DNA from: Candidatus Omnitrophota bacterium
Lineage (GTDB): Bacteria > Omnitrophota > Gorgyraeia > B26-G9 > JBDRCZ01
Assembly (NCBI GenBank): GCA_043821285.1
Contig: JBDRCZ010000029.1
Location: forward strand, 14,959-78,958
DNA: 64,000 nt
Direction: 5' to 3'
Shown: piece by piece, positions 15,001 through 57,478 of the stretch
Position numbering within the stretch: the first letter of the stretch is position 1
Layout of the letters: each line of letters opens with the position of its first letter
Program-made: the position numbers and the translations under genes
The notes under the pieces: model-generated
The model's input: the letters and a program-made list of their open reading frames with translations, nothing else
Told to the model about the DNA's origin: nothing
Databases searched by the model: none

Positions 15001-15002
15001 AT
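1..15002 (-). CDS. giant multidomain secreted protein, 5' complete, 3' end beyond window (at least 5,000 aa). Order from N-terminus: signal peptide; ~33-aa helical repeats; C39-like peptidase domain (Ser at the Cys position); beta-rich repeats; Gly-rich hydrophobic/tandem-repeat region; SF2 DExH helicase core
   Basis: GGAGG then a 7-nt spacer then ATG at 15000-15002 on the minus strand. N-terminus MNIITKKLWFKFITVLLIQAFLFTNSNFSLAADF is signal-peptide-like. Manual translation of the reverse complement from 15002 down to base 1 met no stop, and the reading frame at base 3 matches the frame set at the ATG. Plus-strand ORFs across this span are all 268 aa or shorter and lie antisense. The minus-strand ORF is absent from the track, as expected if the track lists only frames closed by a stop inside the window. 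Internal motifs: GHWVTLIRIDSNNVTIIDNGEKK (C39 His region, about 13600-13700), VGGGKT (4888-4915), DEFH (4524-4535), QGIGRNRR (3536-3560). Confidence 0.8.
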   Translation of the reverse strand, partial: MNIITKKLWFKFITVLLIQAFLFTNSNFSLAADFRYLQGQRDLLDELTKNTPRVKTEQIDITQTAYSPLNTLSLPQAGSESKIARDYAAGIGSNLSFIKESIKGMGAAGYDLTTMITLLKKSGNSARDVAITALKQGYFADEIYEALVSAGYSEHEAESLISRPVREQTREDREKLSLLQEEAAKREIIEQHRDKVLPEIGKVGVKPEQNIEEQKQQEAFVMMHALIKLDYRQEALVLKMFQQGYTDSEIITSFAQMGKGLVEIAALLKSANRSATDIIAAIKEAKLPFSNYQIYRTLLNADYSDQEIILALKSLMVSAEDVLKIATQLDRSMVTIAQAMISAKYSASEIVSSFISKAVNWAKDAVINIINCAVNALAALLNIQGKDTDKQRLAYELILQDILAEGEVVIRGQDVFTSMYALKMIATKYQVNLDGYEMDLESLIKTNRPVIIHFEGHWVTLIRIDSNNVTIIDNGEKKILTTKEFNRLWDGKVLSDQAKGNSRKLTQQEMQITAGANAGEDAWDYAKQQGLSDEEAGYVARAAALDEIERGGGHLYDDDDSNDNGGGSATIPVADTAGYAGDQAWDATMRQLINQGMDPNSQQAQDIARAAAKGAFMNAAQNGAYISPYDAVNDTAQLAAIASGSFVPRETVRAVVAAQINTNVNQGQNLQRAIATVQQNLNDTTYRNTLISNINLVNNIILSLPVNLQTDFRNAPLTIQQNGNVMFHVNNNNTNPNLLQSTIINPSGQITATVYRNRATNQWEKMITPTQTWIYDHSDPAVIKIDVYYGDSNTLPISMTEYQDAQTERTIKRVDHEKGTTSVFDWSQEGVVAINVFRGDEVTGRCIIVDVRDANDINRRLKLIDHEQGTISTFDYSNPEFIVMNVTGAKWMTYHLDPEDGMAFYAKDHKSGADIYFNKDGSGRQVLNGVTVYFDTKGKMIGGDTTGNEVDPEQVAKNKAKWAAAMAEHSGQTTGDTTWGTGIDDPSLPGATDNASDTGTTDANTAPQTSWWDNFLNGAASAANNFLNLFNNPQQPPSPQENIFVWDNLNKEAQSPLALPNIDLTQVTLDPLLDGARNFVDLFNVPVASEDTLAWSPEEPSFLDIGAMLFAPLTETTIDTDTWDLGYISEDDSIGYIPVTMSAAQVDIPGWEGLKNLFMGPSSLTYELDNMGYIPLLDDETLNNSYFTAGKSSEAPANQSKLSLDEQVSFIHTLNGVTGVVGGIMAQLPQIFGPTNPQTAAPIDPNTGMPAVQNAYLQQTKPPNLPELTIPGLNNLMNFFNQKKEEITNRYDIIQTEDGRVEIKGLDTNDPLVNILYGLRQKLEPLTSNLFTNFPLLQQEQNRISDLQTKLYPTAAEDGPGALELVCGLGPIGEALHNLGLALPKPVKDLMELANEATDNLWKLAIGSGTEDLAREAYEKPQGIAQAWYNLTESAQKVLEGASAAITDAWDKVWGFAEEEGGRDIAELWKDAREKIPVVAGTIDENTGRYITQGEKAGAYAPELDDLTSPDTFLLINIELRGEVEERYKAAIANGDTRNSTTYKKALDELDTLDPTQGIIVLKKAECGDAPAQPGSFWVMHIDIESPLISYDVQKIKFNANSALSYMGLLDETTPEIFSRGRLAELLDAARPAIEVLREECQTRKMIKENMPKTYQSIEELMKQEQNYADVLAQYKDDPTVRALIQEQDDAHFADVNLAKASLETYEALFDVRKINGQVQDAIATYWNSDENKYNNAAVDNYMNKSKQYNDKVNELKTNYGNTYAVWQDLQHARTMYDVRLNLYIDNPGFDLSSEELVRFTPEQLQARSQVVIDYKSARDAYSNKMQELYTNNPTLYNFIQDIQLLADIGAILQAGIEKRIRESAVGTNDTGDYFGGVGEKASLNQQKDRVYVELLQQLAKQGIDIDKFVGMNESDVYIDPRINSDGDNPVAYISSPGEVTPAHVDRVRDISPAAILEKIKDPDARNTAAMIINSNGYAQRIQTLDQNIVLAKARMDFAMTRMQLTHNPMSFVIPLVLPNKGDVLDFRGYSVLDWVDLTTTVPLLFVGGGLLKGGTLLAKGGTLLAKGGTKLTGKFSLAARFAEKLEPIATKIAPVASRVGAASSMGVTAVAAANAASFVVNNRQFLSFEQNIAIFATTTLSVLGLSGANVLLTQTASQGLKGIGLHSLRAGLNLGTVFGNVDMLVNNVLAQQMFSQGEDKGFLGALELSAKSYFGWDYETDDQGRINKDAGFHFDPLNVHTYTKGFIGGFILGGLLGVFGGVANVSQAATAAMSAANPAVSQVRLARVYHLGTTAYQGISNSTRLSRVYRLGESAYKGIYSGTLNSRVIGGLTVASLGGFGNIAWSYLTGGLNASSTPGEFVAAFAKGAFLGILFKWAISPQGMEFVKGIGGHVRDYSRVETAELQTGLLRRSKTPFTGDGINQLALDALEGAIKWPFVSMVMNMASPVWDTGIHVLETGADRIVGRFTGNQELINSSWQFKIGDEYTWFREGTEEQGYLPLDWGSFFTANRAISWFAAAKEGKFMGPMIKVMMRHSDEILSKSPQALTRAKAGEGAYNKARAFIGRPMARIEGSLARGMAANNSFLSIASGLVLEAKSLTFVSGFVTGIERGLQSVRRAGAYADVVSGALTAADIQAAGGFEQALARYSGMAFSEGERFALGWALLFMKPNLNRLNAELLTVREADGKINSEKTVKNFATVRKYGSLREALRQGADLEMQVLERVGELVPVVADYLREQGFVEQQTDMITQHFSRGNLATVGRDIRLGLEYLSEYAADGKKDNLQKFLAHSIWLAEGKPEGRSDIHWELAGKALAGDSSNAEIIFRNSLRRESLGVENSFGAELIKGVNSLNLSELGNLIRAHNEIKPLSDTLREKLGKEVQLVGDQDARRLLDKDVQIGDQVLVEVKLPSGERAPLRVELTEALRMQASMQVFEPYRLEGNITEGLMEVYRINPKDTKYVRHLVDYVQEHRYNARGLEKRLSAEGAETLTQTQRDYYQKQQEYQQAYLKGETQQQLALRQQSISQSLDRVNLEILKDINALIGENPQGFSEATIIGGQALLERNIKQGLTSEKLSTRNISTYIIDAYIRQLDRVADAEISNLIDRVKTARQELEHSPLIREKNELLNKIDNLRDKRRQLAERRDSLENGTGIEAFDNSVRLIDKQIERLNQGINELNKQIDRRVEGILGKQEIQLIAGSARMNMGVEMLIKLYPELEIVSGMRKMGKEIEAVVQGLESGEIEVFVDKETGKVQLQGAEGEIITEFNRDILVEGKISKDAVQERVREITGRGEKMVEGLTGLVLRIVFEKAHADLIEAKKLELKKQGRDVTKEELTGLLDVERSTAQIKMVVELLKENSVYQAVGGGKTLGFIMEMLVRGEIAKALGKSLNQLLVVKTGEAEQTVLAGDKAHGGKGSIKLQELVDIFGYELKDGNKYYTERNEQGLVDVLLSPDKIVVVDQTRLGFLSLSKNQRLCDALAMQDVVRFDEFHIPFSSKVTYITSETSLLLEKEFIEAAFHAKKALDTIFQKEIGVPEKGKIGRAQDIAEARKEEHAYVYRDRGEYCLNGKALEIINSHNIKERTAKAYFDARFAEKQETYDVKDKEIKPVENGNIAEDRVFSDRYFIAALYAKESANGPDIVDRNKLFYSKSSSQSTVAEVLGMFGRQASVLGASGTLETVELMHMLHLGKGVAKITPSTYKDVVTRGFASEPAIIRNIIREIVSSRRNGRGVLILVKDPVMYELVRKFLNDNLGETIELINTSASEKKVGDLANDAQNRIILSNVKGATGIDYIGVVDLVIADGHNWTRSELYQGIGRNRRNVAEGLRRVFYLKGALREKTASGVRLQELKRMQVTYGREVKDQAKELIRNAELMQSEELSAALVHHIREAAYSRGVIEPVKHMMRLATSEQKRDSLEAELRAILDKKDTAEVNLRLSHHARNAEEIIEQTIRGVASSSRELFDLIAKGDYGKAVKSRAALLRDIAESILTSEGYQKIQARRDISFREAVNIREITAVAKHRRFLDRILSEEISHANDVSQNRTVVHVIQQIDQARRKGGEARLTLAEKAKLFKNFDRIVLSNGTRGSPELLSRVAVFLPNDSPVTQVLEDLALQGVSLNTPQQAQTILDFISENIINSSAFADYDTQDKEEVIDFVLGMLNPEVSYDNLIIAATVYNFLTDEAKQEVEESSLLSQTFLSQPEEIAAAMLKPKVYKAPIESWQKRRQVKKDGFALSRVQQFAFTNTLGLSKKAVEQSGQRMSFVEFEARAEALLTQQNPAIATSANVEALAYTLLKLEAAGRQQEGAGLSWAGFKTARTQSAQVAVLGMEDNLRGHRLFAADKQNERAKLNAKRAELNAEIASAWKSGDFQRAIMLSQQIRNKGEKSWLDEVWDKIKGSFVRKLGTDILSLALPLGSLAIILGLVSMPISIPIISSIFSAGSSLPFPMLALSLLSTPLSFGWQAKKMYKYYVQGEAAISVDTLLNQTSKNLGVLPVLNELNLPEEYASRIEALITKQNAAAESKAGPEDNDGETENEPLTLADLGNDQIAQTIARLINPASPSIERLKVRDEQLAGFADFIEQSNLDQVSGTGKDSLKEQLKNRITEARQLPNLLISEHQFENLINELNQYTHQAALDSLDQVVADAKGRIKQYKKDVQEHNDSPQQRQELLGDLLTALVNNQMITEQEKNAFINNPDQKNLAIKPEYKKVHNLLIELSQQPDPAAYLEKIANADDAEAEQMLNLLVELGLRPQGINFDKRVLRVLIADLKEAMQKADQQLEKILNSGLRDPYIKKYARAMRNSTLAHFANNAFDENDQKQENPYQVRLNTLTGYASLTVDELRRDLEQDPEREIIVMTIRNGRVVRSKKERVFKDLEAWLNWRIEGLAQTLSDSDLTVQGRDWVEAEQEFYQAGRERLQEIGVEQPILDQSFNQAREEATAFKNEITNLVEGLIKQHFSMLSDGLKGQLKGEILKALRTVTLSGENSRKARKSDQAA
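8796..8860 (-). repeat. in-frame 21-nt tandem repeat (about 2.5 units) encoding (LLAKGGT)n within the giant gene
   Basis: accacccttagcaagtaaagt / gccgcctttagcaagcaaagt / accgcctttt... on the plus strand. Confidence 0.7.
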
Positions 15003-15022
15003 AATATAGCCTCCAAAAAAAC

Positions 15023-15045
15023 GGTTTTGTAAAATACTTAACCAC
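15023..15045 (-). promoter_or_regulatory. conserved leader motif GTGGTTAAGTATTTTACAAAACC (minus-strand sense), 21 nt upstream of the giant-gene ATG
   Basis: Near-identical motif found at 41624-41646 (upstream of clpC) and 42947-42969 (upstream of mcsB). Each copy sits 21-26 nt 5' of the start codon. Confidence 0.45.
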
Positions 15046-15087
15046 AAAAGTCACAGAGTTACATAAGAATAGAATAGTTATAGAATG

Positions 15088-16731: not shown

Positions 16732-16737
16732 AACATG

Positions 16738-16788
16738 AAATTCTAAATGTCCCGCCTAGCAAACTGGCGGACAGGCAAATTTCAAATG
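16738..16788 (+). repeat. partial MITE-like family C element (cccgcctagcaaactggcggacaggcaaat module)
   Basis: Matches the internal inverted-repeat module of the 48666-48870 element. Confidence 0.4.
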
Positions 16789-16810
16789 AAAAACTAAACA
16801 AAATAATACA

Positions 16811-16836
16811 ATAAAAAAAATTCCTTCGGAATCTTT
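16811..16836 (-). terminator. hairpin plus U-tract (AAAGAUUCCGAAGGAAUUUUUUUUAU on the minus-strand transcript) at the distal end of the family A repeat
   Basis: Short GC-poor stem (attcc/ggaat, extendable with one G-U pair) followed by 7-8 U. The same structure is present in every family A copy. Sits downstream of the ROK regulator gene. Confidence 0.35.
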
Positions 16837-16958
16837 TTATCCATTTAAAAACCTCTCGTGTTCAAACCTTCCCTTAACAATGAATTAAATATGCCAATCT
16901 ACACCCCAAATCCCAAGTTATCCACAGATTGAAAATCTTATTGTTTCCTATACGTTAA
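16811..16958 (+). repeat. interspersed repeat family A copy (about 150 bp)
   Basis: ataaaaaaaattccttcggaatcttttt ... ttatccacagattgaaaatcttattgtttcctatacgttaaaa. Four further near-identical copies in the window. Confidence 0.8.
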
Positions 16959-19354: not shown

Positions 19355-20521
19355 ATGGTATCCTCGAGATGTATGGTAAATAGAACCTTTTGGCAAAAGC
19401 AGATTGAAGCATTATGGAAAGAAAAATCTATCATCTGGCTCTCCGGCATCCGTAGAGCAGGAAAGACCTTTCTTTCTAAAAGTCTTCCGAATATCGAATA
19501 TTTTGACTGCGAATTACCCCGAACTCGCAGAATGTTAGAAGACCCTGAAGGATTTTTGGAAACGTTTAAAGAGAAACGCATTATTCTTGATGAAATTCAT
19601 CGTCTTAAGAATCCTTCAGAACTTCTAAAAATTGCTGCTGACTATTATCCTTCTATACAAGTACTGGCAACCGGCTCCTCTACTTTAGGGGCATCAAGAA
19701 AATTTAAGGACACCCTTACCGGCAGAAAACGCTCCCTTTGGCTAACACCAATGAATCTCAACGACCTCGCTGATTTTAATAATATAAATTTATCTCACCG
19801 CTTTTTACACGGAGGGCTCCCCCCGTTTTTTATGGCGCAAAAATTGCCGGAAAAAGATTTCCAAGAATGGATTGACGCTTACTGGGCAAAAGACATCCAA
19901 GAATTATTTCGCTTGGAACGCCGTTATTCCTTCCAAAGATTTTTTGAACTGCTTATGGCTCAAAGCGGCGGCATTTTTGAGGCTACAAGATTTGCAAAAT
20001 TGTGTGAAGTAAGCCGTACAACAATAACTAATTACCTTAAAGTACTCGAAGCAACCTTTGTTGCTCATGTGATCCGCCCATTCAGTTCCCACCGTCCAAC
20101 AGAAATTGTTTTAGCACCGAAGATCTACGGTTTTGATACTGGGTTCGTCTGTTACCACCGTGGTATAACCACATTGCGTTCTGAAGACATGGGACTCCTC
20201 TGGGAACATATTGTATTAAATGAACTTCAGGCAGAATTACAAACACGCAATATTTACTATTGGCGTGATAAACGCGGTCACGAGCTTGATTTTATTCTTA
20301 TACAAAAAAATAAAATTCCCCTGGCGATTGAATGTAAAAGCACATTAGCAGAAAACAGTATTCGAACACGAAACATCCAAGCCTTCTTAACCCAATACCC
20401 ACAAGCAAAAATATTTTATGTCTGTCCTGACGTCAAACGAGTCTATCAGATAAAACTAAAAACCACAAAAATCACAGTAACCAATCTTCCAACACTGCTC
20501 AAAGCACTAAACAACGCATAA
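19355..20521 (+). CDS. AAA+ ATPase of the COG1373 type (AAA_14 N-domain with DUF4143 C-domain)
   Basis: Walker A GIRRAGKTFL and Walker B ILDEIH. Length of about 390 aa and C-terminal region are typical of this family. Only sizeable plus-strand gene in the window. True start may be the Met at 19373. Confidence 0.75.
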   Translation: MVSSRCMVNRTFWQKQIEALWKEKSIIWLSGIRRAGKTFLSKSLPNIEYFDCELPRTRRMLEDPEGFLETFKEKRIILDEIHRLKNPSELLKIAADYYPSIQVLATGSSTLGASRKFKDTLTGRKRSLWLTPMNLNDLADFNNINLSHRFLHGGLPPFFMAQKLPEKDFQEWIDAYWAKDIQELFRLERRYSFQRFFELLMAQSGGIFEATRFAKLCEVSRTTITNYLKVLEATFVAHVIRPFSSHRPTEIVLAPKIYGFDTGFVCYHRGITTLRSEDMGLLWEHIVLNELQAELQTRNIYYWRDKRGHELDFILIQKNKIPLAIECKSTLAENSIRTRNIQAFLTQYPQAKIFYVCPDVKRVYQIKLKTTKITVTNLPTLLKALNNA

Positions 20522-20524
20522 TAA

Positions 20525-20692
20525 GTTTTATTTATAGAAAAATCAATTAAATTAGATAATTACTACATACCAACAAGACATCCTGATGCCTTACCGGGCA
20601 TATTACCAGAAGGGCTGCCCGGCAAAGATGATGCCGAGGAGGCAATATCGATTTTAGAAGAAGTAAAAGTTTTTGTGAGCAAAATTCGTTAG
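20525..20692 (+). pseudogene. C-terminal remnant (about 55 codons, no start) of a HEPN-domain gene
   Basis: In-frame translation gives VLFIEKSIKLDNYYIPTRHPDALPGILPEGLPGKDDAEEAISILEEVKVFVSKIR. This resembles the C-terminal consensus of HEPN (PF05168-like: Y-IP-RYPDA-P...EEA...A). It begins right after a stop codon abutting the ATPase gene. Confidence 0.45.
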
Positions 20693-20709
20693 TCAATTAT
20701 TCATGTAAA

Positions 20710-21804
20710 TTATCGATTCTTTAATATCCATTTTTTCCAAAATGGATCCTCGAGTTCAATCTTCCCGCCATTTATTTTTATTAACGTCCCTAAGGCAATT
20801 AATTTACTTACCACGCTGCCCGCGGTACTCGCTGACTTGATCCCATATTTTCTTATAAATTCCTGTGCCGTAGGATGAGAATTACCTGAAACAATCCCAA
20901 TAATAACCTTTCGTTCAGTATTAGTCAAACTGTTCCACCATCTCGAATAATCTGCATGATGTTCTGTTATAATTTGGTCAATAGCCTTATTTATTACCCC
21001 CTTTGTTAAAATCATTTTTTCACTTAGTATGTAGATCTCATGGCACAATTGCTGAGTATAATAAGGGTGGCAATTAGTAAAGCTTAGAATATCGTTTACA
21101 ATTTCACGAGCATCTATTTTTTGCGAAGAAAATCTTTTTATGACAAACTCTAAAAATTCCGCCTTAGGAATTTTATCCAAGTTAATATGACGGCCAAATT
21201 TATAGAAAGGGTTCTTTTTGTTTTGAAATATTTCCCGAATCATGCTCTCTTGACTTCCGATGAAAATATATGTTATGTTTTGATGATATTGAAATACCCC
21301 GCGCATCTTTCGCTCAAGCATCGGAGAAATCCGGCGTATTTCCTGAAATTCATCAAAAACAATTACAATCTGTTTTTTTATGTTTCTGGCAATCGTTTCC
21401 GGAAGTTGAAGGCTATCTGAGAGAAGAGCAGCAATGTTTCTTTTCTCTGTACTGAAGGACACGGAGATTTCATTCGTTTTTGGCTGAATCTGAATATAGG
21501 GCTGTATCTTTAGGCTGGTTAGGTAATGTTTTATCTTTTCAAACTTACTTAATGATAAGGCATTTCGAACATAATAATTAGCCAAGTCTACCTCATCGGC
21601 AATCAACTCCATATTAATCCTGAACCATTTCATCCCGCTGGCTTTCATTGCTTCATTTATAAGACTGCTTTTACCATAGCGGCGTGGGCTCATAAGCACA
21701 ATATGCTGGCCCGCCTTTAGCTCCGCAGCTATTTCTTTTATTTCTTTATCACGATTGGTGAAGTATGCCCCTGTTACGACATTACCAAATCTAAAGGGAT
21801 TCAT
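20710..21804 (-). CDS. AAA+ ATPase of the archaeal ATPase / DUF234 type (COG1672-like)
   Basis: Walker A SPRRYGKSSL and Walker B VIVFDEFQ. About 360 aa with a DUF234-like C-terminus. Confidence 0.7.
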   Translation of the reverse strand: MNPFRFGNVVTGAYFTNRDKEIKEIAAELKAGQHIVLMSPRRYGKSSLINEAMKASGMKWFRINMELIADEVDLANYYVRNALSLSKFEKIKHYLTSLKIQPYIQIQPKTNEISVSFSTEKRNIAALLSDSLQLPETIARNIKKQIVIVFDEFQEIRRISPMLERKMRGVFQYHQNITYIFIGSQESMIREIFQNKKNPFYKFGRHINLDKIPKAEFLEFVIKRFSSQKIDAREIVNDILSFTNCHPYYTQQLCHEIYILSEKMILTKGVINKAIDQIITEHHADYSRWWNSLTNTERKVIIGIVSGNSHPTAQEFIRKYGIKSASTAGSVVSKLIALGTLIKINGGKIELEDPFWKKWILKNR

Positions 21805-21999: not shown

Positions 22000-22212
22000 T
22001 CATGCATTCAAGGCAAGTTTATGTGCCTTTTGTTCAACTGTGTAAATTAAATCTTGAATGGTATCTACTTCTTGCTCTTCAAAATATGCTTCCCCACACT
22101 GTTCACATATCCAAGCAGGAACACTATCGAAGGTTACGTGACAGCCATTTTTATCAATATGAAGCGGCGTAATTCCTTGTTTCATGATACCATGGCAATG
22201 AATACATTTCAT
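22000..22212 (-). CDS. YgiT-type zinc-finger protein (MqsA N-terminal-like)
   Basis: MKCIHCHGIMKQGITPLHIDKNGCHVTFDSVPAWICEQCGEAYF matches the YgiT pattern of two Cys pairs with NG..V and VPA..C..CGE. Confidence 0.6.
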   Translation of the reverse strand: MKCIHCHGIMKQGITPLHIDKNGCHVTFDSVPAWICEQCGEAYFEEQEVDTIQDLIYTVEQKAHKLALNA

Positions 22213-26540: not shown

Positions 26541-26665
26541 AGTTAATTCCAAATGACAAATTTCAAAATCCAAATTAATCTTCAAATAACTCAATCCCAA
26601 AAATCCATGCCCGAGGCGGGTGGAGGAAAAATCAAACATCAAAATGACAATGTAAAATTCAAATA
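26541..26665 (+). repeat. MITE-like family C element (partial/variant) just upstream of the 1,292-aa gene
   Basis: aattccaaatgacaaatttcaaaatccaaat ... cccgaggcgggtggagg ... aaatgacaatgtaaaattcaaat. Confidence 0.45.
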
Positions 26666-26773
26666 TTTTTTCTTTGATTTCTTTCAGTTTTTCTTCGCGA
26701 TCTTCGTGGGCTTCGTGGTTAAAACATCACATTTTTTAAGCTTGAACTATTATGACATAGCTTTGAAGTTTTT

Positions 26774-27043
26774 TTAAATACTGCGATAGGCGGATGGCCG
26801 GAGGGTGATTAAAAGGACCCCAATGCGCTTATCTCTCTTATCTATTTCATAAATTATACGATAATCACCTGCACGGTAACGATATAAAATCTTTTTTACT
26901 TTTAATCGCTTAATGTTTTGTCCCTGAAAAGGATTATTTTCTAAATCTTCAAAACATCTGTTTAGGCGATTGGCTAATTTAGACGAGCAATTTTGATAAA
27001 ATTTCAATGCCTGCGGCAGCAAAATTACCTTAAATTTATCCAC
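26774..27043 (-). CDS. type II toxin of the RelE/ParE family
   Basis: 89 aa, ending RYRAGDYRIIYEIDKRDKRIGVLLITLRP, a typical RelE/ParE C-terminus. Overlaps the upstream antitoxin gene by 8 nt. Confidence 0.75.
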   Translation of the reverse strand: MDKFKVILLPQALKFYQNCSSKLANRLNRCFEDLENNPFQGQNIKRLKVKKILYRYRAGDYRIIYEIDKRDKRIGVLLITLRPSAYRSI

Positions 27044-27269
27044 GCTTTACTTTTCTCCAGTTAGCACCCTTGCCCTTATAAAAAAGTTTGCTCTCCTTCT
27101 CAATGTGAGCTATTTCTTCGCTGGTAAGCGTCTCATCAACTTTTTCTAAAAGCAACTCGCGCACTAAAGCAGAAATAGATTTGTATTCCCTATCGCATAG
27201 ACATTTTATCTTCTCATATAATGAAGCCGGTAACCTTATCAATAACTCTTTATTCATAGTTATAGCCAT
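27036..27269 (-). CDS. antitoxin, likely ribbon-helix-helix/CopG-like
   Basis: 77 aa, LIRLPASLYEKIKCLCDREYKSISALVRELL. Gene order antitoxin then toxin. Confidence 0.6.
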   Translation of the reverse strand: MAITMNKELLIRLPASLYEKIKCLCDREYKSISALVRELLLEKVDETLTSEEIAHIEKESKLFYKGKGANWRKVKRG

Positions 27270-27313
27270 TTTTGTCTCCTTATAAATTTCATTACAATTT
27301 ATCTTCCACTATA

Positions 27314-27342
27314 AGTATATCATAATGATATATAATTGTCAA
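27314..27342 (-). promoter_or_regulatory. TA operon promoter (-35 TTGACA, 17 nt, -10 TATACT) with an operator-like palindrome ATATCATTATGATAT in the spacer
   Basis: Minus-strand read: ttgacaattatatatcattatgatatacttatagtgg, about 45 nt upstream of the antitoxin ATG. Confidence 0.5.
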
Positions 27343-27640
27343 GTTTAGATTTCAATACCAGTTGTCATACAGGACGTTCAGACGTCTGTATAAAAATACA
27401 ATTTTGAAATGTTAAAAATTAAAACAATAGTTCATCCTTTTAAAACATATAATCCTTAAACCACAAAGCACCAAGCGCACAAAGTTTTTGTATTCATTCT
27501 TCGTGCCCTTTGTGTCCTTCGTGGTAAATAATTTTCTATTTTTTCTTTTGTCTGAACTGGTACTTCTTTGCGTATCGGATTAATTTATTTTTATTATTTT
27601 CGTCAGATAACGTAAAGCTCGCAGAGAAAATATAAAATTA

Positions 27641-27780: not shown

Positions 27781-27838
27781 CGGACCCGCCTCCGGCGGGA
27801 ATTTTGGGATTAAGTTATTAAATGATTCATTTGGATTT
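27781..27838 (+). repeat. MITE-like family C arm downstream of cysS
   Basis: aaatgattcatttggattttgtcatttgacatttgag. Confidence 0.45.
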
Positions 27839-27869
27839 TGTCATTTGACATTTGAGATTAAATAAAGCC

Positions 27870-29312: not shown

Positions 29313-29320
29313 AACTTACT

Positions 29321-29458
29321 AATTCCAAAATCCAAATGAATCTTTAAATATCTGAATCTCAAAAAAAACAATTATAAAATCTTTTTCTATTTGTCTGCCC
29401 GCCGTGATTTTGACAGGTTATTTTTTTGTTGAATGATTAATTTGTCATTTGTCATTTC
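29321..29458 (+). repeat. MITE-like family C element between cysS and gltX
   Basis: aattccaaaatccaaatgaatctttaaatatctgaatctcaaaaaaaacaatt ... gattaatttgtcatttgtcatttc. The internal part matches the 48666-48870 element. Confidence 0.6.
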
Positions 29459-30936
29459 TTAAGCGCTTCCCCCATCCTCTTAAGGCAAACCTCTTTACCC
29501 AAGAGCGGCAGGACAAAAGTAAGCTCCGGGCCTTGCATATCGCCGGTTAAGGCTACGCGTACCGGCAGGTATAAATTCTTTCCTTTTATCCCGGTTGCAG
29601 TTTGCACCTCTTTCATCAGCGCTTTAAAACTTACTACCGTAATCTCTTCCGCACTTTTGCTTAAACCTGATACCAGAGACGTCAATATTGCTTTTGCTTC
29701 TTCATTTTTCAATATATCCTGTGCTTCGTTGTTATAAGTTAGTATTTCCCGAAAAAATATATCTGCGTAAAGCAGGATATCTTTTATTTTTTTTAAACGC
29801 TCCTTGACCGTTAAAACTACTTGTTTAACCCGGTCAAATTTTTCCGCAGCGGTTTTTTCATCCAAAAAACCTGCCGCCACCAAATAAGGAATGCACATCC
29901 GGGTTAACTGTTCAATCTCTAAGCTGCGGATGTAATGTCCGGAAATCCAGTCAAGCTTCGCCGGGTCAAATAAAGCCTGCGACTTATTAAGATCTTCGAC
30001 TGCAAAATCAGAAATTATCTCCGGTTTTGATAAAATTTCCTTTTCTCCTTTTGGCGCCCAGCCGAGAAGCACCAGGTAATTAAACAGCGCCTCTGGTAAA
30101 TATCCCCGTGCACGATAACTATCAATTGAAACCGACTCTACCCGTTTACTAAGTTTTTCTCCGCCTTCGCCCATGGTCATTGACATGTGGGCAAATTGCG
30201 GAATGTGCGCCCCGAGACTTTCAAATATTAAAATATGACGCGGGGTATTCGAGAGGTGGTCTTCGCCTCTTAAAATATGGGTGATCTGCATTAAATAATC
30301 ATCTACACATACGGCAAAATTAAACATCGGATAGCCATCAGATTTCTGCACGACAAAATCTCCAATCACGGATGTATTAAACTGCACTCTCCCCCGTATT
30401 AAATCGTCAATTATAATCTCTCTGTTATCCGGTACCTTGAATCGCAACACCGGTATTCTATTTTCACTGCGGTATTTTTGTTTCTCTTCTTCGGTAAGAT
30501 TACGGCAGCGGTTGTCATAACGTGAAGTCTTACCCTGTTGAAGCAGTTTCTCCCTTCTTTCCTCCAGTTCTTCTGCGCGGCAGTAACACTCATATAATCT
30601 GCCGCGGTGCTTTAATTTATCCAGGTATTGCTTGTAAATATCAATCCGCTGTGACTGGACATAAGGGGCAAATTCTCCACCAATGTCCGGACCTTCATCC
30701 CAATCAATGCCCAGCCACTTCAAATCCGCGAAAATCTCCTGCACAAAATTTTTCTGTGAACGTTCTATATCAGTATCTTCAATTCTCAATATAAAACGCC
30801 CCTGCGCTTTGCGGGCAAATATCCAGTTAAACAGCGCTGTCCTGGCATTACCAATATGTAATCTGCCCGTGGGACTGGGGGCAAAACGTACTCGAACCAC
30901 GCTACCTCCGGTAGAATGACAAATGTCAAATTCCAA
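29452..30936 (-). CDS. gltX: glutamate--tRNA ligase. The tracked start is a TTG lying inside a repeat arm; the true start is probably near 30898 (GTG, VVRVRFAPSPTGRLHIG).
   Basis: HIGNARTALFNW and KLSKR motifs; 494 aa. Confidence 0.9.
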   Translation of the reverse strand: MEFDICHSTGGSVVRVRFAPSPTGRLHIGNARTALFNWIFARKAQGRFILRIEDTDIERSQKNFVQEIFADLKWLGIDWDEGPDIGGEFAPYVQSQRIDIYKQYLDKLKHRGRLYECYCRAEELEERREKLLQQGKTSRYDNRCRNLTEEEKQKYRSENRIPVLRFKVPDNREIIIDDLIRGRVQFNTSVIGDFVVQKSDGYPMFNFAVCVDDYLMQITHILRGEDHLSNTPRHILIFESLGAHIPQFAHMSMTMGEGGEKLSKRVESVSIDSYRARGYLPEALFNYLVLLGWAPKGEKEILSKPEIISDFAVEDLNKSQALFDPAKLDWISGHYIRSLEIEQLTRMCIPYLVAAGFLDEKTAAEKFDRVKQVVLTVKERLKKIKDILLYADIFFREILTYNNEAQDILKNEEAKAILTSLVSGLSKSAEEITVVSFKALMKEVQTATGIKGKNLYLPVRVALTGDMQGPELTFVLPLLGKEVCLKRMGEALKK

Positions 30937-31183
30937 ATAAGAAAACCGTCAAGCGGTTACGGTTACGTAAGTTTTTGTATTGTGTATTGAGTCGTGCGTA
31001 TTGCGGTTTTTATGGTATAGGAAAGTATACTCTTATACCCTTACGGGCACAAGTAAAACACTTTCCTAACCACTGAAAATCGCAGATTGTCGTCTTTTTA
31101 TTTTTTATGCTCAATACTCGATGCTCAATACGAGTATTATTACCTTAACCGTTACCGAATAAGCAGTGCGTAATACGCAATAC

Positions 31184-33384: not shown

Positions 33385-33490
33385 TTTAATTTCACATGTC
33401 AAATCTCAAATGAATTACTAAATAAAACAATCAAAAAATTAAAAGATTTGAAGATTAGAAGATTCATTTGGATTTTGGATTTTGTCATTA
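33385..33490 (+). repeat. MITE-like family C element between yacL and radA; its right arm supplies the last ~17 codons of the radA ORF
   Basis: atttcacatgtcaaatctcaaatgaatt ... gattcatttggattttggattttgtcatt. The radA C-terminal tail NDKIQNPNESSNLQIF is encoded by the arm. Confidence 0.55.
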
Positions 33491-41598: not shown

Positions 41599-41623
41599 CT
41601 TGCTCCTCCTTTAATATTAGTAG

Positions 41624-41646
41624 GGTTCTGTCAGATACTTAACCAC
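41624..41646 (-). promoter_or_regulatory. conserved leader motif copy (GTGGTTAAGTATCTGACAGAACC) 26 nt upstream of the clpC ATG
   Basis: See 15023-15045. Confidence 0.45.
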
Positions 41647-41870
41647 TTACTTTATAATCTTACCCATCCCCCTCTGTGTTCTCTTACAGTATTAATCTTT
41701 CTATCCCTTCTTTTAGCCTCAACATATTGAATGAACTTCAATAGCAAATGCGATTATCTTCTCGGTTATCTCCTTCATCGTGAATTCTTTTCGAGAGCTC
41801 TGACCTGCCGGCAGGCAGGGCATTGTCTTTCTCTCTGCGTCCTCAGTGGTTCCTTTCATTTTCTTTCATT

Positions 41871-42923: not shown

Positions 42924-42946
42924 ATAAAACCCCTTTTTTATTCTCT

Positions 42947-42969
42947 GGTTCTGTAAAATACTTAACCAC
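42947..42969 (-). promoter_or_regulatory. conserved leader motif copy (GTGGTTAAGTATTTTACAGAACC) 24 nt upstream of the mcsB ATG
   Basis: See 15023-15045. Confidence 0.45.
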
Positions 42970-43310
42970 GGAGGTTCTAGTGCTCACTTTTAAGGTGTAC
43001 GACAACCTTTGGCCGTTCATTACCATAAATACTTATTTCCCCGCCAAGATTCATTGACTACAGATTGTAAAACAACGTTTAAACATTTTTTAGCCACGGA
43101 TTTACACGGATACTACACGAATTTTAATATTCAAACCTTTCAACTCTTTTTTAAATTTTTCTAGTCACGCCTTTTTTATCCGTGGCTAATCCGTGAAAAT
43201 CTGTGGCTCTATTTTATTTTTTCGCCATGAATTAACACAGATGTAACAACGGGGCATCGTGATTATTTTCCTGTGATTCCTTTCATTTTATTGTCACTTT
43301 ATTTTTGACA

Positions 43311-43850
43311 CTACTTATTTTCTTTCTTTTCCATCTCTTTTATTTTATCGCGTATTTTTGCCGCCTCCTCAAATGCCTCGGTCTGAATTGCCTTCTGTAG
43401 TCTAATTTGCATATCCTGAAGCTCTTTTCTAACCTTAAACTCAGGCCCGCTTTTTGTTGGAGATTTTCCGGCATGCTGACTTGCGCCGTGTATCCTTTTA
43501 AATAACGGTTCCAGACTCTGCTTAAACGTTGTATAACACTCACTGCAGCCAAAACGGCCAATCCGCTTAAAGTCCTCGTAGGTAAGTTTACAATTTGGGC
43601 ATTTAATTACCTGTTTTCTTCCTGGTTTTCCTGCTGGTACGGCTAAATCAACCAGTCCGGATAAAAGATCCTGCAAAGCAAACGGCTGTCCTAACCCGGC
43701 GACGCCTTTTTCCCGTGCGCATTCTTCGCAAAGATGCAATTCAGTCATCTGATCATTGATTATTTCCGTAAGATGCACGGAAGCCTGTTTCTTCCCGCAA
43801 ATATCACAGACCATATTTAACCTCCGGTTAACTAAAATTCCAAAATTCAA
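43311..43850 (-). CDS. mcsA: McsA (zinc-finger and UVR-motif activator of McsB)
   Basis: CDICGKK...CEEC and CPNC...CSEC zinc fingers plus a UvrB/C motif (LQKAIQTEAFEEAAKIRDKIKEME). True start is likely the later Met (MVCDICG). Confidence 0.8.
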   Translation of the reverse strand: MNFGILVNRRLNMVCDICGKKQASVHLTEIINDQMTELHLCEECAREKGVAGLGQPFALQDLLSGLVDLAVPAGKPGRKQVIKCPNCKLTYEDFKRIGRFGCSECYTTFKQSLEPLFKRIHGASQHAGKSPTKSGPEFKVRKELQDMQIRLQKAIQTEAFEEAAKIRDKIKEMEKKENK

Positions 43851-43953
43851 ATGTCAAAATCTAAATGAATCTTCTAATCTTCAAATCCTTTAATTTTTTT
43901 ATTGTTTTATTTAGTAATTCATTTGAAATTTGGATTTTGACATTTGTCATTCT
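43834..43953 (+). repeat. MITE-like family C element between mcsA and the aminotransferase gene
   Basis: aaaattccaaaattcaaatgtcaaaatctaaatgaatcttc ... catttgaaatttggattttgacatttgtcattc. Confidence 0.6.
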
Positions 43954-43957
43954 GTTT

Positions 43958-44857
43958 TTAAAGTTTGTATCGCGTCCCCTTTATCTTGGTAACCTTTTGA
44001 AATTCTTTCATGATTAACTTTGTCGTCTTTCCCGGCAAACCATCACCAATTTTGCGGCCGTCAATTTGAACCACGGGAATAACCTCGGCCGCGGTACCGG
44101 TTAAAAAACACTCATCCGCGTTATAGAGGTCGTGGCGGGTTAAAAAATCTTCCGTAAAACCGGCAATGTGTTTTTTTCTGACAATATCAATAACTTCCCC
44201 TCTGGTTATCCCGTTCAATACGCCCAGATTAACGATTGGTGTTTTTAATTCACCATTTTTTATAATAAAAATATTATCCCCGGTACATTCCGCAACATAC
44301 CCCTGGGAATTAAGCATTATTGCCTCTTCAACGCCGGCATTTATTGCCTCGATTTTTGCCAGAATGTTATTTAAATAATTAAGTGATTTTATCTGCGGAT
44401 TAACTGCCTCGGAAAGATTACGCATTGTCGGTACCGTGACGATCACCAGTCCCTGTTCGTAAAATTTCTGCGGATAAATGGCAATTTTATCGGTAATAAT
44501 GATAATCACCGGACGGCGGCATTTTCTCGGGTCAAGTCCCAAATCACCAATACCTCTGGTTACCACCAATCTTATATAGGCATTTTTCAATTTATTCAAT
44601 TTTAAGGTATCAATTACGGCTTTAATCATTTCTTTTTTGGCCATGGGAAGCATCAGCATTATCGTGTGTGCCGATTCATACAAGCGGTCAATATGTTCTT
44701 CCAGCTTAAACACCAACCCATTATAAGACCGGATTCCTTCAAACACGCCGTCGCCATAAAGCAGTCCATGGTCAAAAACAGAAACCCTTGCCTGATCCTG
44801 TTCATAGTATTTTCCATCAACATAAACCTTCAATCCCATGATCACCTCCCGGTACAA
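43958..44857 (-). CDS. ilvE: class IV aminotransferase, branched-chain amino acid aminotransferase-like
   Basis: LYGDGVFEGIRSY and other class IV fold motifs; 299 aa. D-amino-acid aminotransferase cannot be excluded. Confidence 0.7.
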   Translation of the reverse strand: MYREVIMGLKVYVDGKYYEQDQARVSVFDHGLLYGDGVFEGIRSYNGLVFKLEEHIDRLYESAHTIMLMLPMAKKEMIKAVIDTLKLNKLKNAYIRLVVTRGIGDLGLDPRKCRRPVIIIITDKIAIYPQKFYEQGLVIVTVPTMRNLSEAVNPQIKSLNYLNNILAKIEAINAGVEEAIMLNSQGYVAECTGDNIFIIKNGELKTPIVNLGVLNGITRGEVIDIVRKKHIAGFTEDFLTRHDLYNADECFLTGTAAEVIPVVQIDGRKIGDGLPGKTTKLIMKEFQKVTKIKGTRYKL

Positions 44858-44865
44858 TTACAAAT

Positions 44866-45104
44866 TCCAAATGTCAAATTCCAAATAAATAACTTAACAA
44901 AAAAATGACAAATAAAAGAAACATTATACAACAAAATGTTTTTCTCTGTGTAATTAAATAAAAAAATTCCTTCGGAATCTTTTTATCCATTTGAAAACCG
45001 TAGGTTTTCAAACTTTCCCTCCAAAAGATCACCCTCTATCAAGCTATAGGGAATAATCAAGTTTAATGATTCATTTAGATTTTGGCATTTGTAATTTGTC
45101 ATTT
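44866..45104 (+). repeat. composite element: family C inverted-repeat arms (44866-44900 and 45060-45104) enclosing a partial family A module (44958-45024)
   Basis: attacaaattccaaatgtcaaattccaaat ... ataaaaaaattccttcggaatctttttatccatttgaaaaccgtaggttttcaaactttccctcc ... gattcatttagattttggcatttgtaatttgtcatttttt. Confidence 0.5.
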
Positions 45105-45105
45105 T

Positions 45106-47295: not shown

Positions 47296-48636
47296 TCACC
47301 CGCATAATTTTTGCACTGTCTTAAAACTACGCATTAATATTAAATCAATCTCATTTTTTTTCACACATAACGGTAAATAAAAATATATAATCGAACCCAG
47401 CGGCCGAAGAATAAGCTGCTGCTTAAGCCCGTACTTATAAACTTGCAGACCAATTCTCTCCTTAAGGCCAAATGCCTGTTTTGTCTTTTTATTCTTTACC
47501 AATTCCATCGCCCCAATCATCCCCAGATAGCGTACATCGCCAACTAAAGGAAGTGCTCTGAATTTTTCAAGTCCCCGGTGAAATACCGGAATTAGCTGCT
47601 TCATCCTGTTTAGAGTGTCTTCCTTCTTGAAAATTTTCAGACCCGCCACTGCTGCGGCACAGGCAAGAGGATTGGCGGTATAAGTATGTCCGTGATAAAA
47701 GGTCTTTTTCTGTTCATAATCTGCCAAGAATGCCTGATAAACCTCATCGGTCGTTAAAGTAACACCTAACGCCAGGCACCCTGAGGTTATGCCTTTGGAA
47801 AGACAGATAAAATCAGGAAAAATATTTGCCAGTTCACAAGCAAACATTTTTCCCGTCCGGCCAAAACCTGTCGCAATCTCATCAACAATCAAATGCACTT
47901 TAAACTCGCGCGCAAGTTTAGCCGCTTTGATCAAATAATCTGGCGGATAAACAATCATCCCGCCCGCAGCCATAACCAAAGGTTCTAAAATTACTGCGGC
48001 AATCTCTTTATTTTTTTCGGCAAGTATTTTTTCAAGTGGCGTGATACATTCGATCGCACATCTTTCTCTTTGTTTTCCCACCGGACAACGATAGCAATAA
48101 GGCGAGGGAATTTTATAAGACGCAAAAAATAATGGTTTAAATACTCCATTAAACAAATCAACTCCACTCACACTCATTGCCCCAATCGTATCCCCATGAT
48201 AAGCATAATCTAACGCGACAAATTTTGTCTTTTTCTTCTTCCCAATATTCTGCCAATACTGATACGACATCTTTAGCGCCACCTCGACCGCGGTGGAACC
48301 ATTATCGGAAAAAAATACTTTTGTTAGACCTTTCGGGGTAATTGCCACAAGTCTTTCGGCCAGCACTATTGCCGGCTTATGCGTAAAACCGGCAAATAAT
48401 ACCTGGTCCAAGGCATTTATTTGTTCTTTAATTGCCTGCTTTATTTGCGGGTGATTATGACCGTGCACATTACACCACCAGCTTGATATCGTATCATAAT
48501 AAAAATTACCTGCTGGATCATATAATTTTATTCCCTTTGCCCGGTCTATTAATATTGGCGGCAATTGCCGGCAATCCTTCATTTGGGTATAAGGGTGCCA
48601 GATGTATCGTAAATCTTTTTCTATCCAGGTATACAT
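47296..48636 (-). CDS. bioA: adenosylmethionine-8-amino-7-oxononanoate aminotransferase
   Basis: Class III PLP aminotransferase motifs (DEIATGFGRTGKMFA); 446 aa; biotin operon context. Confidence 0.88.
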   Translation of the reverse strand: MYTWIEKDLRYIWHPYTQMKDCRQLPPILIDRAKGIKLYDPAGNFYYDTISSWWCNVHGHNHPQIKQAIKEQINALDQVLFAGFTHKPAIVLAERLVAITPKGLTKVFFSDNGSTAVEVALKMSYQYWQNIGKKKKTKFVALDYAYHGDTIGAMSVSGVDLFNGVFKPLFFASYKIPSPYCYRCPVGKQRERCAIECITPLEKILAEKNKEIAAVILEPLVMAAGGMIVYPPDYLIKAAKLAREFKVHLIVDEIATGFGRTGKMFACELANIFPDFICLSKGITSGCLALGVTLTTDEVYQAFLADYEQKKTFYHGHTYTANPLACAAAVAGLKIFKKEDTLNRMKQLIPVFHRGLEKFRALPLVGDVRYLGMIGAMELVKNKKTKQAFGLKERIGLQVYKYGLKQQLILRPLGSIIYFYLPLCVKKNEIDLILMRSFKTVQKLCG

Positions 48637-48665
48637 TACTATGCCTCAGTGTAAAGATTACTGTT

Positions 48666-48870
48666 AAAATTCCAAAATCCAAATGACAAAATCCCCGCCA
48701 CAAAGATTGGCGGACAGGCAAATAAATCTTTTAATATTTTAATCTCAAAAAAACAATTAAGCTGCAAAAACATTTTTTTATTTGTTATTTTTTTGTTAAG
48801 TAATTCATTTGCCTGTCCGCCGTCTTGTTGGGCGGGGCATTTGGATTTTGACATTTGGGATTTGAAAATG
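48666..48870 (+). mobile_element. MITE-like family C element between bioA and bioD. Outer terminal inverted repeats of about 28 bp, a nested second inverted repeat (ccccgcc..ggcggacaggcaaat / atttgcctgtccgcc..ggcgggg), and an AT-rich core.
   Basis: aaaattccaaaatccaaatgacaaaatc at 48666-48693 and ggattttgacatttgggatttgaaaatg at 48843-48870 are reverse complements. Nested inverted repeat read directly. Confidence 0.6.
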
Positions 48871-48885
48871 ATAAACTTCCGCATT

Positions 48886-49575
48886 CTACTTATTGCTTAT
48901 TATTTTCCGGCCTATTGGCTGAAATTTCTCATACTGCACTTCCTTATTTTTACTATACGGCAGTACCCCGAGTATTTCTATTTTGCTTATCTTTTTTATG
49001 ATTAGCGGGTTATCTCTTAAAATAAGCGGATTTTCTTTTTTAAAAAGATTATTAAAAATAACCCCAATTATTTTGATCCTTCTTTTTTTTAGTGCTTCGA
49101 TCGTCAGTAAAGTATGATTAATTGCCCCTAATTTATTCGCGGCAACAATAATTACCGGTAATTTAAATTCTTTGACCATATCAACTACCAGCCGCTTATT
49201 ATTAAACGGCACCAATACCCCGCCAATCCCTTCAACAATCACCAGATCAAAACACCTGCTCAGCACTTTTAAGCTCTTTTTTATTCTATCTTCCTTTATA
49301 TTTCTTTGTTCAAGCTGTGCGGCTAAATGCGGGGAGGCAGAAAATTTAAAACTGTACGGCAGCATATATGATAAATAATCACTAACCTCTTTTTTCCCCT
49401 GCTGCATCAGTTTTAACTGGCAAGCAATATCCGGAGAAAATCTTCTGCTGCCGCTCTGTATCCATTTCTGGGTAATAACCTGCACGCCGCGTTCTTTAAA
49501 AAAACGTCCGAGCAACCCACAAACAACCGTTTTCCCGACCCCGGTATCGGTACCGGCAACAAAAACCGCCTTCAT
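48886..49575 (-). CDS. bioD: dethiobiotin synthetase
   Basis: GTDTGVGKTVV P-loop; 229 aa. Confidence 0.88.
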   Translation of the reverse strand: MKAVFVAGTDTGVGKTVVCGLLGRFFKERGVQVITQKWIQSGSRRFSPDIACQLKLMQQGKKEVSDYLSYMLPYSFKFSASPHLAAQLEQRNIKEDRIKKSLKVLSRCFDLVIVEGIGGVLVPFNNKRLVVDMVKEFKLPVIIVAANKLGAINHTLLTIEALKKRRIKIIGVIFNNLFKKENPLILRDNPLIIKKISKIEILGVLPYSKNKEVQYEKFQPIGRKIISNK

Positions 49576-56144: not shown

Positions 56145-56259
56145 ATTAAAATCCGTTATTCATATCTCGTTGTTAATATCTCGAATATAAACTAAGTTTC
56201 TTTGGCTTTAACAAGATACGAGATACAAGATACGAACGACAAGTCTGCTAAGACTTTTT

Positions 56260-57329: not shown

Positions 57330-57478
57330 ATAAAAAAATTCCTTCGGAATCTTTTTATCCATTTAAAAACCTATGGTTTTCAAACCTTCCCTTAACAATG
57401 AATTAAATATACCAAACTATACCCCAATTCCCAAGTTAGCCAGAGATTGAAAATCTTATTGTTTCCTAATACGTGAAC
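57330..57478 (+). repeat. interspersed repeat family A copy (most divergent) downstream of macB
   Basis: ataaaaaaattccttcggaatctttttatccatttaaaaacctatggttttcaaacc...gttagccagagattgaaaatcttattgtttcctaatacgtgaac. Confidence 0.75.

Follow-up and report, generated by a model that had tools for sequence, protein, structure and literature searches.

The window, a stretch of 64,000 nucleotides from a Candidatus Omnitrophota bacterium, has a G+C content of about 40% and carries nearly all of its genes on the minus strand. Among these is a biotin operon in which bioB, bioF, a gene for a BioH-like hydrolase, bioC and bioD are followed, after a spacer of 249 nt (48637-48885), by bioA. In the direction of transcription bioD (48886-49575, minus) lies 5' and bioA (47296-48636, minus), which has its own GAGG ribosome-binding site, lies 3' of an element, here called A, that occupies 48666-48870 and is assigned to neither strand. 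An earlier note, made from the sequence by a model, had described this spacer as a nearly symmetric structure with outer arms, inner arms and an AT-rich core, and the description is borne out: the spacer is a near-perfect palindrome, and the 25-nt outer arms of the element (48670-48694 and 48843-48867) are 84% complementary. Element A is composed of two heptad arms (48666-48693 and 48837-48870), two nested GC hairpins (48694-48718 and 48812-48836) that form an inverted doublet, and the AT-rich core (48719-48811). The inner arms on either side of this core read CCCCGCC-N-GGCGGACAGGCAAAT and its mirror image, or, described otherwise, CCCCGCC-N-GGCGG plus ACAGGCAAAT. As RNA, the spacer is predicted to form one hairpin, with a folding energy of -80.9 kcal/mol (z = -7.8). 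An 81-codon ORF (48639-48884, minus) covers the whole spacer and starts one base past the bioD stop; it is probably fortuitous. Given that the cores of related copies are found in both orientations, this ORF is not conserved. The bioA|lolC spacer contains a perfect TTGACA-18-TATAAT promoter match (47175-47146, minus), which suggests that the organism uses sigma-70-type promoters; with this promoter nearby, a reading of the TTTG repeats in the arms as Bacteroidetes-type promoters was set aside.

The arms had been taken for terminal inverted repeats of about 28 bp, of the kind found in MITEs. Inversion of the arms is real, but each is an array of 2-5 heptads in tandem, CAAAWNN (or, read in a different register, GACAAAT), which vary in number and sequence and are all directed into the spacer, and the GC hairpins nested among them had been overlooked. 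On the inner side of every array there is a conserved box, reading CAAATGAATC or the complement of this, and internal to the box there are two kinds of subterminal sequence. The terminal motif of the earlier note has 19 matches in the window at up to 3 mismatches, against 1.97 expected, and strict arrays of at least three units, (TTTGNNN)x>=3, number 10 against 0.04 in shuffled sequence. The tiny GC hairpin CCGCC-N9-GGCGG occurs five times (at 16752, 18292, 18471, 48695 and 48817; 0.16 expected), placed at heptad boundaries and usually with RCAGR after it. In element A and in a partial copy, S, it takes the form of a 25-26-nt hairpin, CCCGCC-N9-GGCGG-ACAGG, between two heptads.

The arms of the bioD|bioA spacer also bound seven other sites in the window, none of them assigned a strand. 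Element B (44856-45105) lies at the lolD-ilvE junction with heptad arms at 44861-44888 and 45071-45105, and its core houses a different, nested repeat that includes a terminator-like hairpin (44966-44978). Element C (43834-43952), at the ilvE-mcsA junction, is a short form of about 115 bp, and element E (33388-33489) lies between radA and a PIN-domain gene, where it encodes the last ~16 codons of radA and the stop codon (33439-33489, NNDKIQNPNESSNLQIF followed by the stop). C and E occupy unrelated loci; their cores are identical at 74 of 78 positions but stand in inverted orientation with respect to the genes. Element D (29316-29458), at the gltX-cysS junction, has a core related to that of A and a degenerate GC hairpin inside (29394). 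Element F is formed by an arm on the cysS side (27781-27861) paired with an arm upstream of a 1292-aa ORF (26541-26665); these inverted arms align over about 110 nt, and between them F carries a ParE toxin gene (26774-27043) and an RHH antitoxin gene (27036-27269), a cargo occupying 26774-27269 on the minus strand. A solo heptad arm, G (30913-30954), lies directly 5' of the gltX ribosome-binding site. The partial copy S (16737-16846) consists of heptads, then the GC hairpin CCCGCC-N9-GGCGGACAGG, then a type-1 box, and matches one half of A, inverted, over about 95 nt. That half of A is also common to B, again inverted, while the other half is common to D; the copies in the window are mosaics. 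No ORF with a family match was found in the short elements.

A sequence-only model, built mostly from metagenome copies with the addition of elements C and E, was used to search the window. At E<0.01 it identified 48666-48864, 45054-45105, 43834-43952, 33388-33489, 29316-29457, 27809-27861, 26544-26595 and 30913-30954, and no site at this threshold beyond those that the earlier note had listed as related. All of the listed sites were recovered, the one given as 16738-16788 only weakly (16775-16846, E = 0.02).

Repeats of other kinds share the window. The ispF|gltX spacer (30937-31183) is bounded by inverted arrays of a different heptad family, GTATTGN / NCAATAC, and CGAGATA / GTATCTT heptad repeats flank tRNA-Ser at 56145-56243. 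A second repeat family of about 150 nt, with a terminator-like end hairpin AAAAAGATTCCGAAGGAATTTTTTTAT, has its hairpins at 57338, 53262, 44966, 18702 and 16820 (all minus); one copy is nested in element B and one adjoins partial copy S. The mcsB|clpC spacer (272 nt, 41599-41870) and the mcsA|mcsB spacer (387 nt, 42924-43310) are swollen; in the relative L081, mcsA and mcsB overlap and mcsB|clpC measures 26 nt. Further repeats, CACGAAG-type units among them, are found in these two spacers and in the region 26700-27530, as is a fragment …ITEKIIAFAIEVH resembling the start of a GxxExxY-family gene. The repeat-rich region near element F holds a weak MqsA-like small ORF (22000-22212), below the Pfam cut-off, and two AAA-ATPase genes (19355-21804), one of the DUF4143 type and one of the ATPase_2 type. 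At the left end of the window an ORF of at least 5016 codons (1-15050, minus) runs off the end; giant genes have been reported for Omnitrophota.

Orthologous junctions in other genomes reveal what the operons look like when the elements are missing. The BioA protein of the window is at most 69% identical to those of Omnitrophota MAGs, and an IlvE (P0001) that matches the window's at 100% identity belongs to an NCBI Omnitrophota MAG. All of the junction comparisons involve distant relatives (BioA/IlvE 63-72% identical, RadA/PIN 57-62%). In the Omnitrophota relatives L001, L002, L003 and L006, bioD and bioA overlap or abut, and in the more distant MAGs L012, L023, L042, L051 and L067 they are fused into one ORF. 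In L081 (SM23_29) the lolD|ilvE spacer measures 14 nt, as against 248 nt in the window, and ilvE|mcsA 1 nt, as against about 110 nt. The radA|PIN junction of L140 and L148 is without the element and has a small hairpin only. Since four orthologous junctions are empty in relatives, the elements are insertions; the family to which A belongs, hereafter family C, is supported as one of dispersed, gene-less palindromic insertions rather than conserved regulatory sequences. Conservation of the arms at orthologous positions in distant relatives, which the earlier note had named as a refuting result, was not seen. Unrelated palindromes were seen at the same junctions in L004 (3930-4130), L005 (9770-9980) and L082 (5874-6042); these sites, together with L001 (20370-20520) and L006 (9963-9997), hold, at the same or comparable gene junctions, other palindromes or the heptad families CGAAATC, GATGTTG and CTAACGA. 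From the sites in L004, L005 and L082, colonisation of junctions by hairpin elements appears to be common in the phylum.

The distribution of the family was examined in metagenomes. An exact 25-mer from the core common to C and E had no metagenome match, and a degenerate arm pattern retrieved 76 metagenome loci and had no match in 2.9 million viral contigs. Scripted pairing of arrays yielded 59 elements, the window's included and a few of them spurious, and about 50 of the retrieved metagenome sites are paired elements of family C, mostly 100-120 bp long and several per contig. The consensus of 26 aligned copies is TAAATGACAAAATCCAAAATCCAAATTnCAAATGAATCATTAAAAT...ATTTGGATTTnAATGATTCATTTGGATTTTGTAATTTGGATTTTGGATTTTAA. 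In the groundwater metagenome Ga0105164 a very uniform form of about 112 bp is present on many contigs, again several per contig, at a density of 24 elements per 118 kb in the retrieved DNA, a biased sample. The Ga0105164 population is Omnitrophota-like; on its contig L140 the genes run radA-PIN-ispD-ispF-(cysE)-cysS, and their proteins share 49-62% identity with those of the window. In L112 and L140, CCTGCC..GGCAGG GC hairpins are nested at the same heptad boundary. A miniature copy is also present in a Desulfobacterales MAG (L038). The identical internal junction found at many loci indicates that the miniature form itself multiplies. The proposal of a proliferating non-autonomous element stands as far as it concerns dispersed gene-less insertions, with near-identical copies at unrelated loci and in other genomes; as MITEs in the strict sense they are at most candidates. 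The claim that the copies sit at junctions between co-directional genes says little within the window, because 33 of its 35 long ORFs are on the minus strand, and it holds in the metagenome copies: in a crude ORF test 31 of the 59 elements lie clearly between co-directional ORFs and none between convergent ones. One copy departs from operon junctions altogether. In L147 (4425-4730) the aptamer of a cobalamin riboswitch (47.7 bits) has one hairpin loop occupied by a heptad-armed element, which indicates that the palindrome is tolerated inside structured RNA, much like the intervening sequences (IVS) of rRNA. In L116, about 1.7 kb separates a heptad-armed element from a group II intron domain match (197-429).

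Some members of the family are longer and carry a gene. In L143 and L110 the arms and boxes of family C enclose exactly one gene of 123-124 aa, assigned to Pfam PF05635 ('23S rRNA-intervening sequence protein') and to the TIGR02436 four-helix-bundle proteins, with the PDB relative 2RLD. Three of the gene-bearing examples, these two among them, were loci originally picked by the arm pattern itself, and homologues were therefore collected by protein search only and their contigs then examined as an independent test. Inverted CAAATNN arrays were found on both sides of three of the four protein-picked homologues: in L160 between carA and carB, in L161 between a UPF0102 gene and a ComM-like gene, and in L163 within a gas-vesicle (gvp) operon. 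In the fourth, L165, labelled Margulisiibacteriota, an array flanks the gene on a single side. Compared with the consensus of the miniatures, the gene-bearing cassettes have arms of about 80-85% identity, and L090 shows the same cassette architecture with a different heptad, CCTAAAT. Host labels of the gene-bearing forms include Omnitrophota and Aureabacteria. In all, PF05635 is the cargo at five loci (L143, L110, L160, L161 and L163), as well as in L137 and L090. We infer that the miniature form derives from the gene-bearing form. The gene could also be no more than a frequent passenger, like the ParE/RHH pair in element F. PF05635 proteins are reported to resemble the Avd accessory protein found in diversity-generating retroelements (PMC10053308). 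Gene callers place the start of some PF05635 ORFs inside the heptad arrays.

A regular 7-bp period, a variable number of units, arrays both direct and inverted, and association with a nucleic-acid-binding protein family are also what would be expected if the heptads were bound by the four-helix-bundle protein itself or by a ribbon-helix-helix protein, so that the elements would act mainly as DNA, organising the nucleoid or insulating the transcription of neighbouring genes. The RHH gene inside element F fits this idea, and the omega repressor is a ribbon-helix-helix protein that binds heptads. We consider such a role improbable: the arrays are missing at the orthologous junctions of relatives, which argues against a conserved host function, and there is no PF05635 gene in the 64-kb window, nor in any window copy.

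The ends of the elements are polar with respect to the flanking genes. The element tips read ATAGTTAAA...TTTAACTAT, and ATGAC is present in the upstream, stop-codon-side tip of 26 of 31 oriented copies, as against 5 of 31 on the start-codon side (p ~1e-7). The stop-side tip is usually TAAATGAC or TAATGAC and supplies TAA or TGA stops, while the downstream tip is often GGGATTTTAACTAT, followed directly by the G that completes the ATG of the next gene. Inversion affects the cores of C and E but leaves the polarity of the tips unchanged, which suggests that recombination between arms may have flipped the core; for these inverted cores, such a flip may be just as possible as insertion in either orientation. 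The earlier note had called for a search for target-site duplications and for an autonomous transposase with the same terminal repeats. No consistent duplication could be defined, either by inspection of about 30 oriented copies or by an all-against-all search of the flanks, and roughly half of the copies have TAA at each end. The same flank search gave filled/filled orthologous pairs only, with no filled-versus-empty difference among close strains; the orthologous copies in L093 and L132, both filled, are about 95% identical (by eye), with flanks at 88-91%. A transposase gene was found neither in the 64-kb window nor among the neighbours listed for L160-L165; in place of such a partner, the full-length forms carry PF05635.

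These results bear on whether the family is an ordinary DNA-transposon MITE, its heptads serving as binding sites of a transposase encoded elsewhere and PF05635 and ParE/RHH as passengers, which we regard as a possible but unlikely explanation. Elements that are small and numerous, end in inverted repeats and can form hairpins agree with it, as does a cargo that varies from a toxin-antitoxin pair in element F to PF05635 elsewhere, and the TAA at both ends of about half the copies could be a 3-bp duplication of the kind that IS5/Harbinger-type elements make. It is weakened by the missing transposase and target-site duplication, by tips whose polarity toward the flanking genes is unlike random-orientation cut-and-paste, and by the recurrence of PF05635 as cargo both here and in published IVS elements. 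The better-known elements of this type, Correia/NEMIS of Neisseria, ERIC, RUP and Nezha, resemble family C in that they are 100-250 bp long, end in inverted repeats, lack a transposase, are present in numerous copies between genes and fold into long hairpins as RNA (PMC3184786). In contrast to family C, these MITE families show a defined target-site duplication (TA in Correia and ERIC) and have a recognisable parent IS, and they do not have arms made of heptad arrays. The hairpins of Correia elements are targets of RNase III.

The prediction that the elements would form long hairpins as RNA was upheld for most of them. Besides element A, element B folds well (z = -5.6), whereas C and D fold weakly (z = -2.1 and -1.4); over 26 family members the mean is z = -4.9, most of them forming one stem of about 40 pairs. 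RNAalifold on the alignment of these 26 copies retained the invariant box helix alone and, since slippage of the heptads throws the alignment out of register, revealed no compensatory covariation of the arms. In 15 of the 26 copies the conserved box has a mismatch at its centre, and pairing of the arms may simply follow from their inversion, without selection. Scanning the spacers for promoters and terminators gave weak promoter matches in the cores and, in one case, upstream of bioA, a GC hairpin followed by a T-rich array with a terminator-like score; there was no strong promoter or canonical terminator in the core, and a terminator or promoter function for the elements is unconvincing on these few matches. 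The bioA hairpin, together with the greater identity of the L093/L132 copies than of their flanks and the over-representation of heptameric simple repeats, some as inverted pairs, in the intergenic DNA of many bacteria (PMC4692102), would suit host regulatory hairpins (terminators, attenuators or mRNA stabilisers) made in place by heptamer slippage and kept by selection. This explanation is nevertheless very improbable, given the empty orthologous junctions and the non-repetitive cores and boxes common to unrelated loci, across phyla; the same core at non-orthologous sites refutes an origin in place.

Heptamers and tiny hairpins have been encountered together before. Cyanobacterial STRR sequences are reportedly intergenic tandem heptamers with tiny hairpin repeats of 17-27 nt nested among them, the latter described in Nostoc as very small dispersed repeats, SDR (Mazel 1990; Elhai 2008). 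Family C likewise combines intergenic tandem heptamers with nested tiny hairpins, CCTGCC..GGCAGG and CCGCC-N9-GGCGG; it differs in unit sequence and phylum, and in that its heptads are the inverted arms of a discrete element with a gene-bearing full-length form. The nested hairpins also recall REP/BIME/REPIN sequences, with which the family shares extragenic palindromes and inverted doublets and to which the earlier note had offered a link. REP sequences are defined as GC-rich palindromes of 20-40 nt with a GTAG or CGTC tag (PMC3733652). A related system moved by a RAYT enzyme (IS200/IS605-type) acting on single-stranded hairpins would account for high copy number without target-site duplication, the excess of CCGCC-N9-GGCGG hairpins and their inverted doublet in A could be counted in its favour, and strand-specific insertion could be mirrored in the polarity of the tips. 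Such a mechanism is hardly credible, and the REP/BIME comparison fails, for elements whose main arms are true terminal inverted repeats, AT-rich heptad arrays of 30-50 nt, which lack the GTAG/CGTC tag even in the nested GC hairpins, in a window without a RAYT or TnpA gene.

The closest likeness is to the intervening sequences of 23S rRNA. The 23S IVS of Coxiella burnetii, described as selfish, has terminal inverted repeats that form a 28-bp stem, and an S23p ORF; it contains tandem GACAGAT heptads in strain-variable number, and RNase III cuts at the start of the first repeat (PMC4990558). Family C shares the terminal inverted repeats, with a stem of at least 20 bp (the published stem being about 28 bp), the variable number of heptads in the stem, whose sequence GACAAAT is one base apart from that of Coxiella, and, in the loop of the full-length forms (L143, L110, L160, L161 and L163) but of no window copy, a gene of the PF05635 family; both are viewed as selfish (PMC4990558). 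They differ in location, since the IVS of Coxiella, Leptospira, Xanthomonas and Brucella occupy 23S helix 25 or 45 and the elements described here occupy operon junctions and, once, a riboswitch loop; the 64-kb window contains no rRNA gene, its Rfam matches being one tRNA only. They differ further in that most copies of family C are without an ORF and appear to multiply as miniatures of about 110 bp. The literature searched held no paper joining heptad arms, PF05635 genes and operon-junction miniatures, which is no proof of novelty.

Taken together, these observations favour a model, to which we give a probability of about 0.6, where family C represents miniature, gene-less derivatives of a widespread selfish IVS-type palindromic cassette at operon junctions. 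Each arm of the cassette would comprise an inward-facing heptad array (CAAAWNN, or GACAAAT in the other register) followed by the box CAAATGAATC, and the full-length form would carry the PF05635 / TIGR02436 four-helix-bundle gene in its loop. Cassettes and their ~110-bp derivatives would have inserted at once-tight stop/start junctions of operons, bioD|bioA among them, with the ATGAC-containing tip on the stop-codon side. Individual copies would later have changed through heptad slippage, through the nesting of GC hairpins of 17-26 nt or other repeats, and through capture of cargo, such as the ParE/RHH pair of element F. Upon co-transcription with the operon the arms would pair into an imperfect duplex of 30-90 bp, and RNase III may cut this duplex, parting the upstream from the downstream cistrons (bioBFHCD from bioA, and likewise at other junctions), while the downstream genes would keep or gain a ribosome-binding site. 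Cleavage of the element stems in mRNA is suggested by analogy: the earlier idea that the hairpins could punctuate polycistronic RNA at junctions gains ground from the excision of 23S IVS by RNase III.

A bolder version of this model is decidedly doubtful. The heptad cassette might be a mobile-element class of its own, without a canonical transposase, in which the Avd-like protein recognises the arms and a hairpin, either the RNA excised by RNase III or its DNA counterpart, serves as the mobility intermediate, possibly by reverse transcription as in diversity-generating retroelements. If true, this would account for the polarity of the tips relative to transcripts, for insertion sites in rRNA helices, in the loops of riboswitches and at stop/start junctions, and for the missing target-site duplication; the 23S rRNA intervening sequences would then be merely the most visible members of the class.

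To our knowledge, rRNA intervening sequences and the S23p/four-helix-bundle genes have been known for 30 years with their origin and mobility unexplained. If the IVS-type reading is correct, IVS-like elements with heptad inverted arms, with or without a PF05635 gene, are abundant between ordinary operon genes and span Omnitrophota and MAGs labelled Aureabacteria and Desulfobacterales, with a one-armed case in Margulisiibacteriota, and such an element has given rise to a gene-less miniature that proliferates. The target and the ends could then be defined from hundreds of insertion sites, with the PF05635 protein as a candidate binding partner, and the model makes the concrete prediction that RNase III cuts polycistronic mRNAs at the element junctions. 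For annotation, the elements account for the swollen intergenic spacers in the window's genome and for mis-called gene ends, such as the tail of radA and PF05635 ORFs begun inside the arrays.
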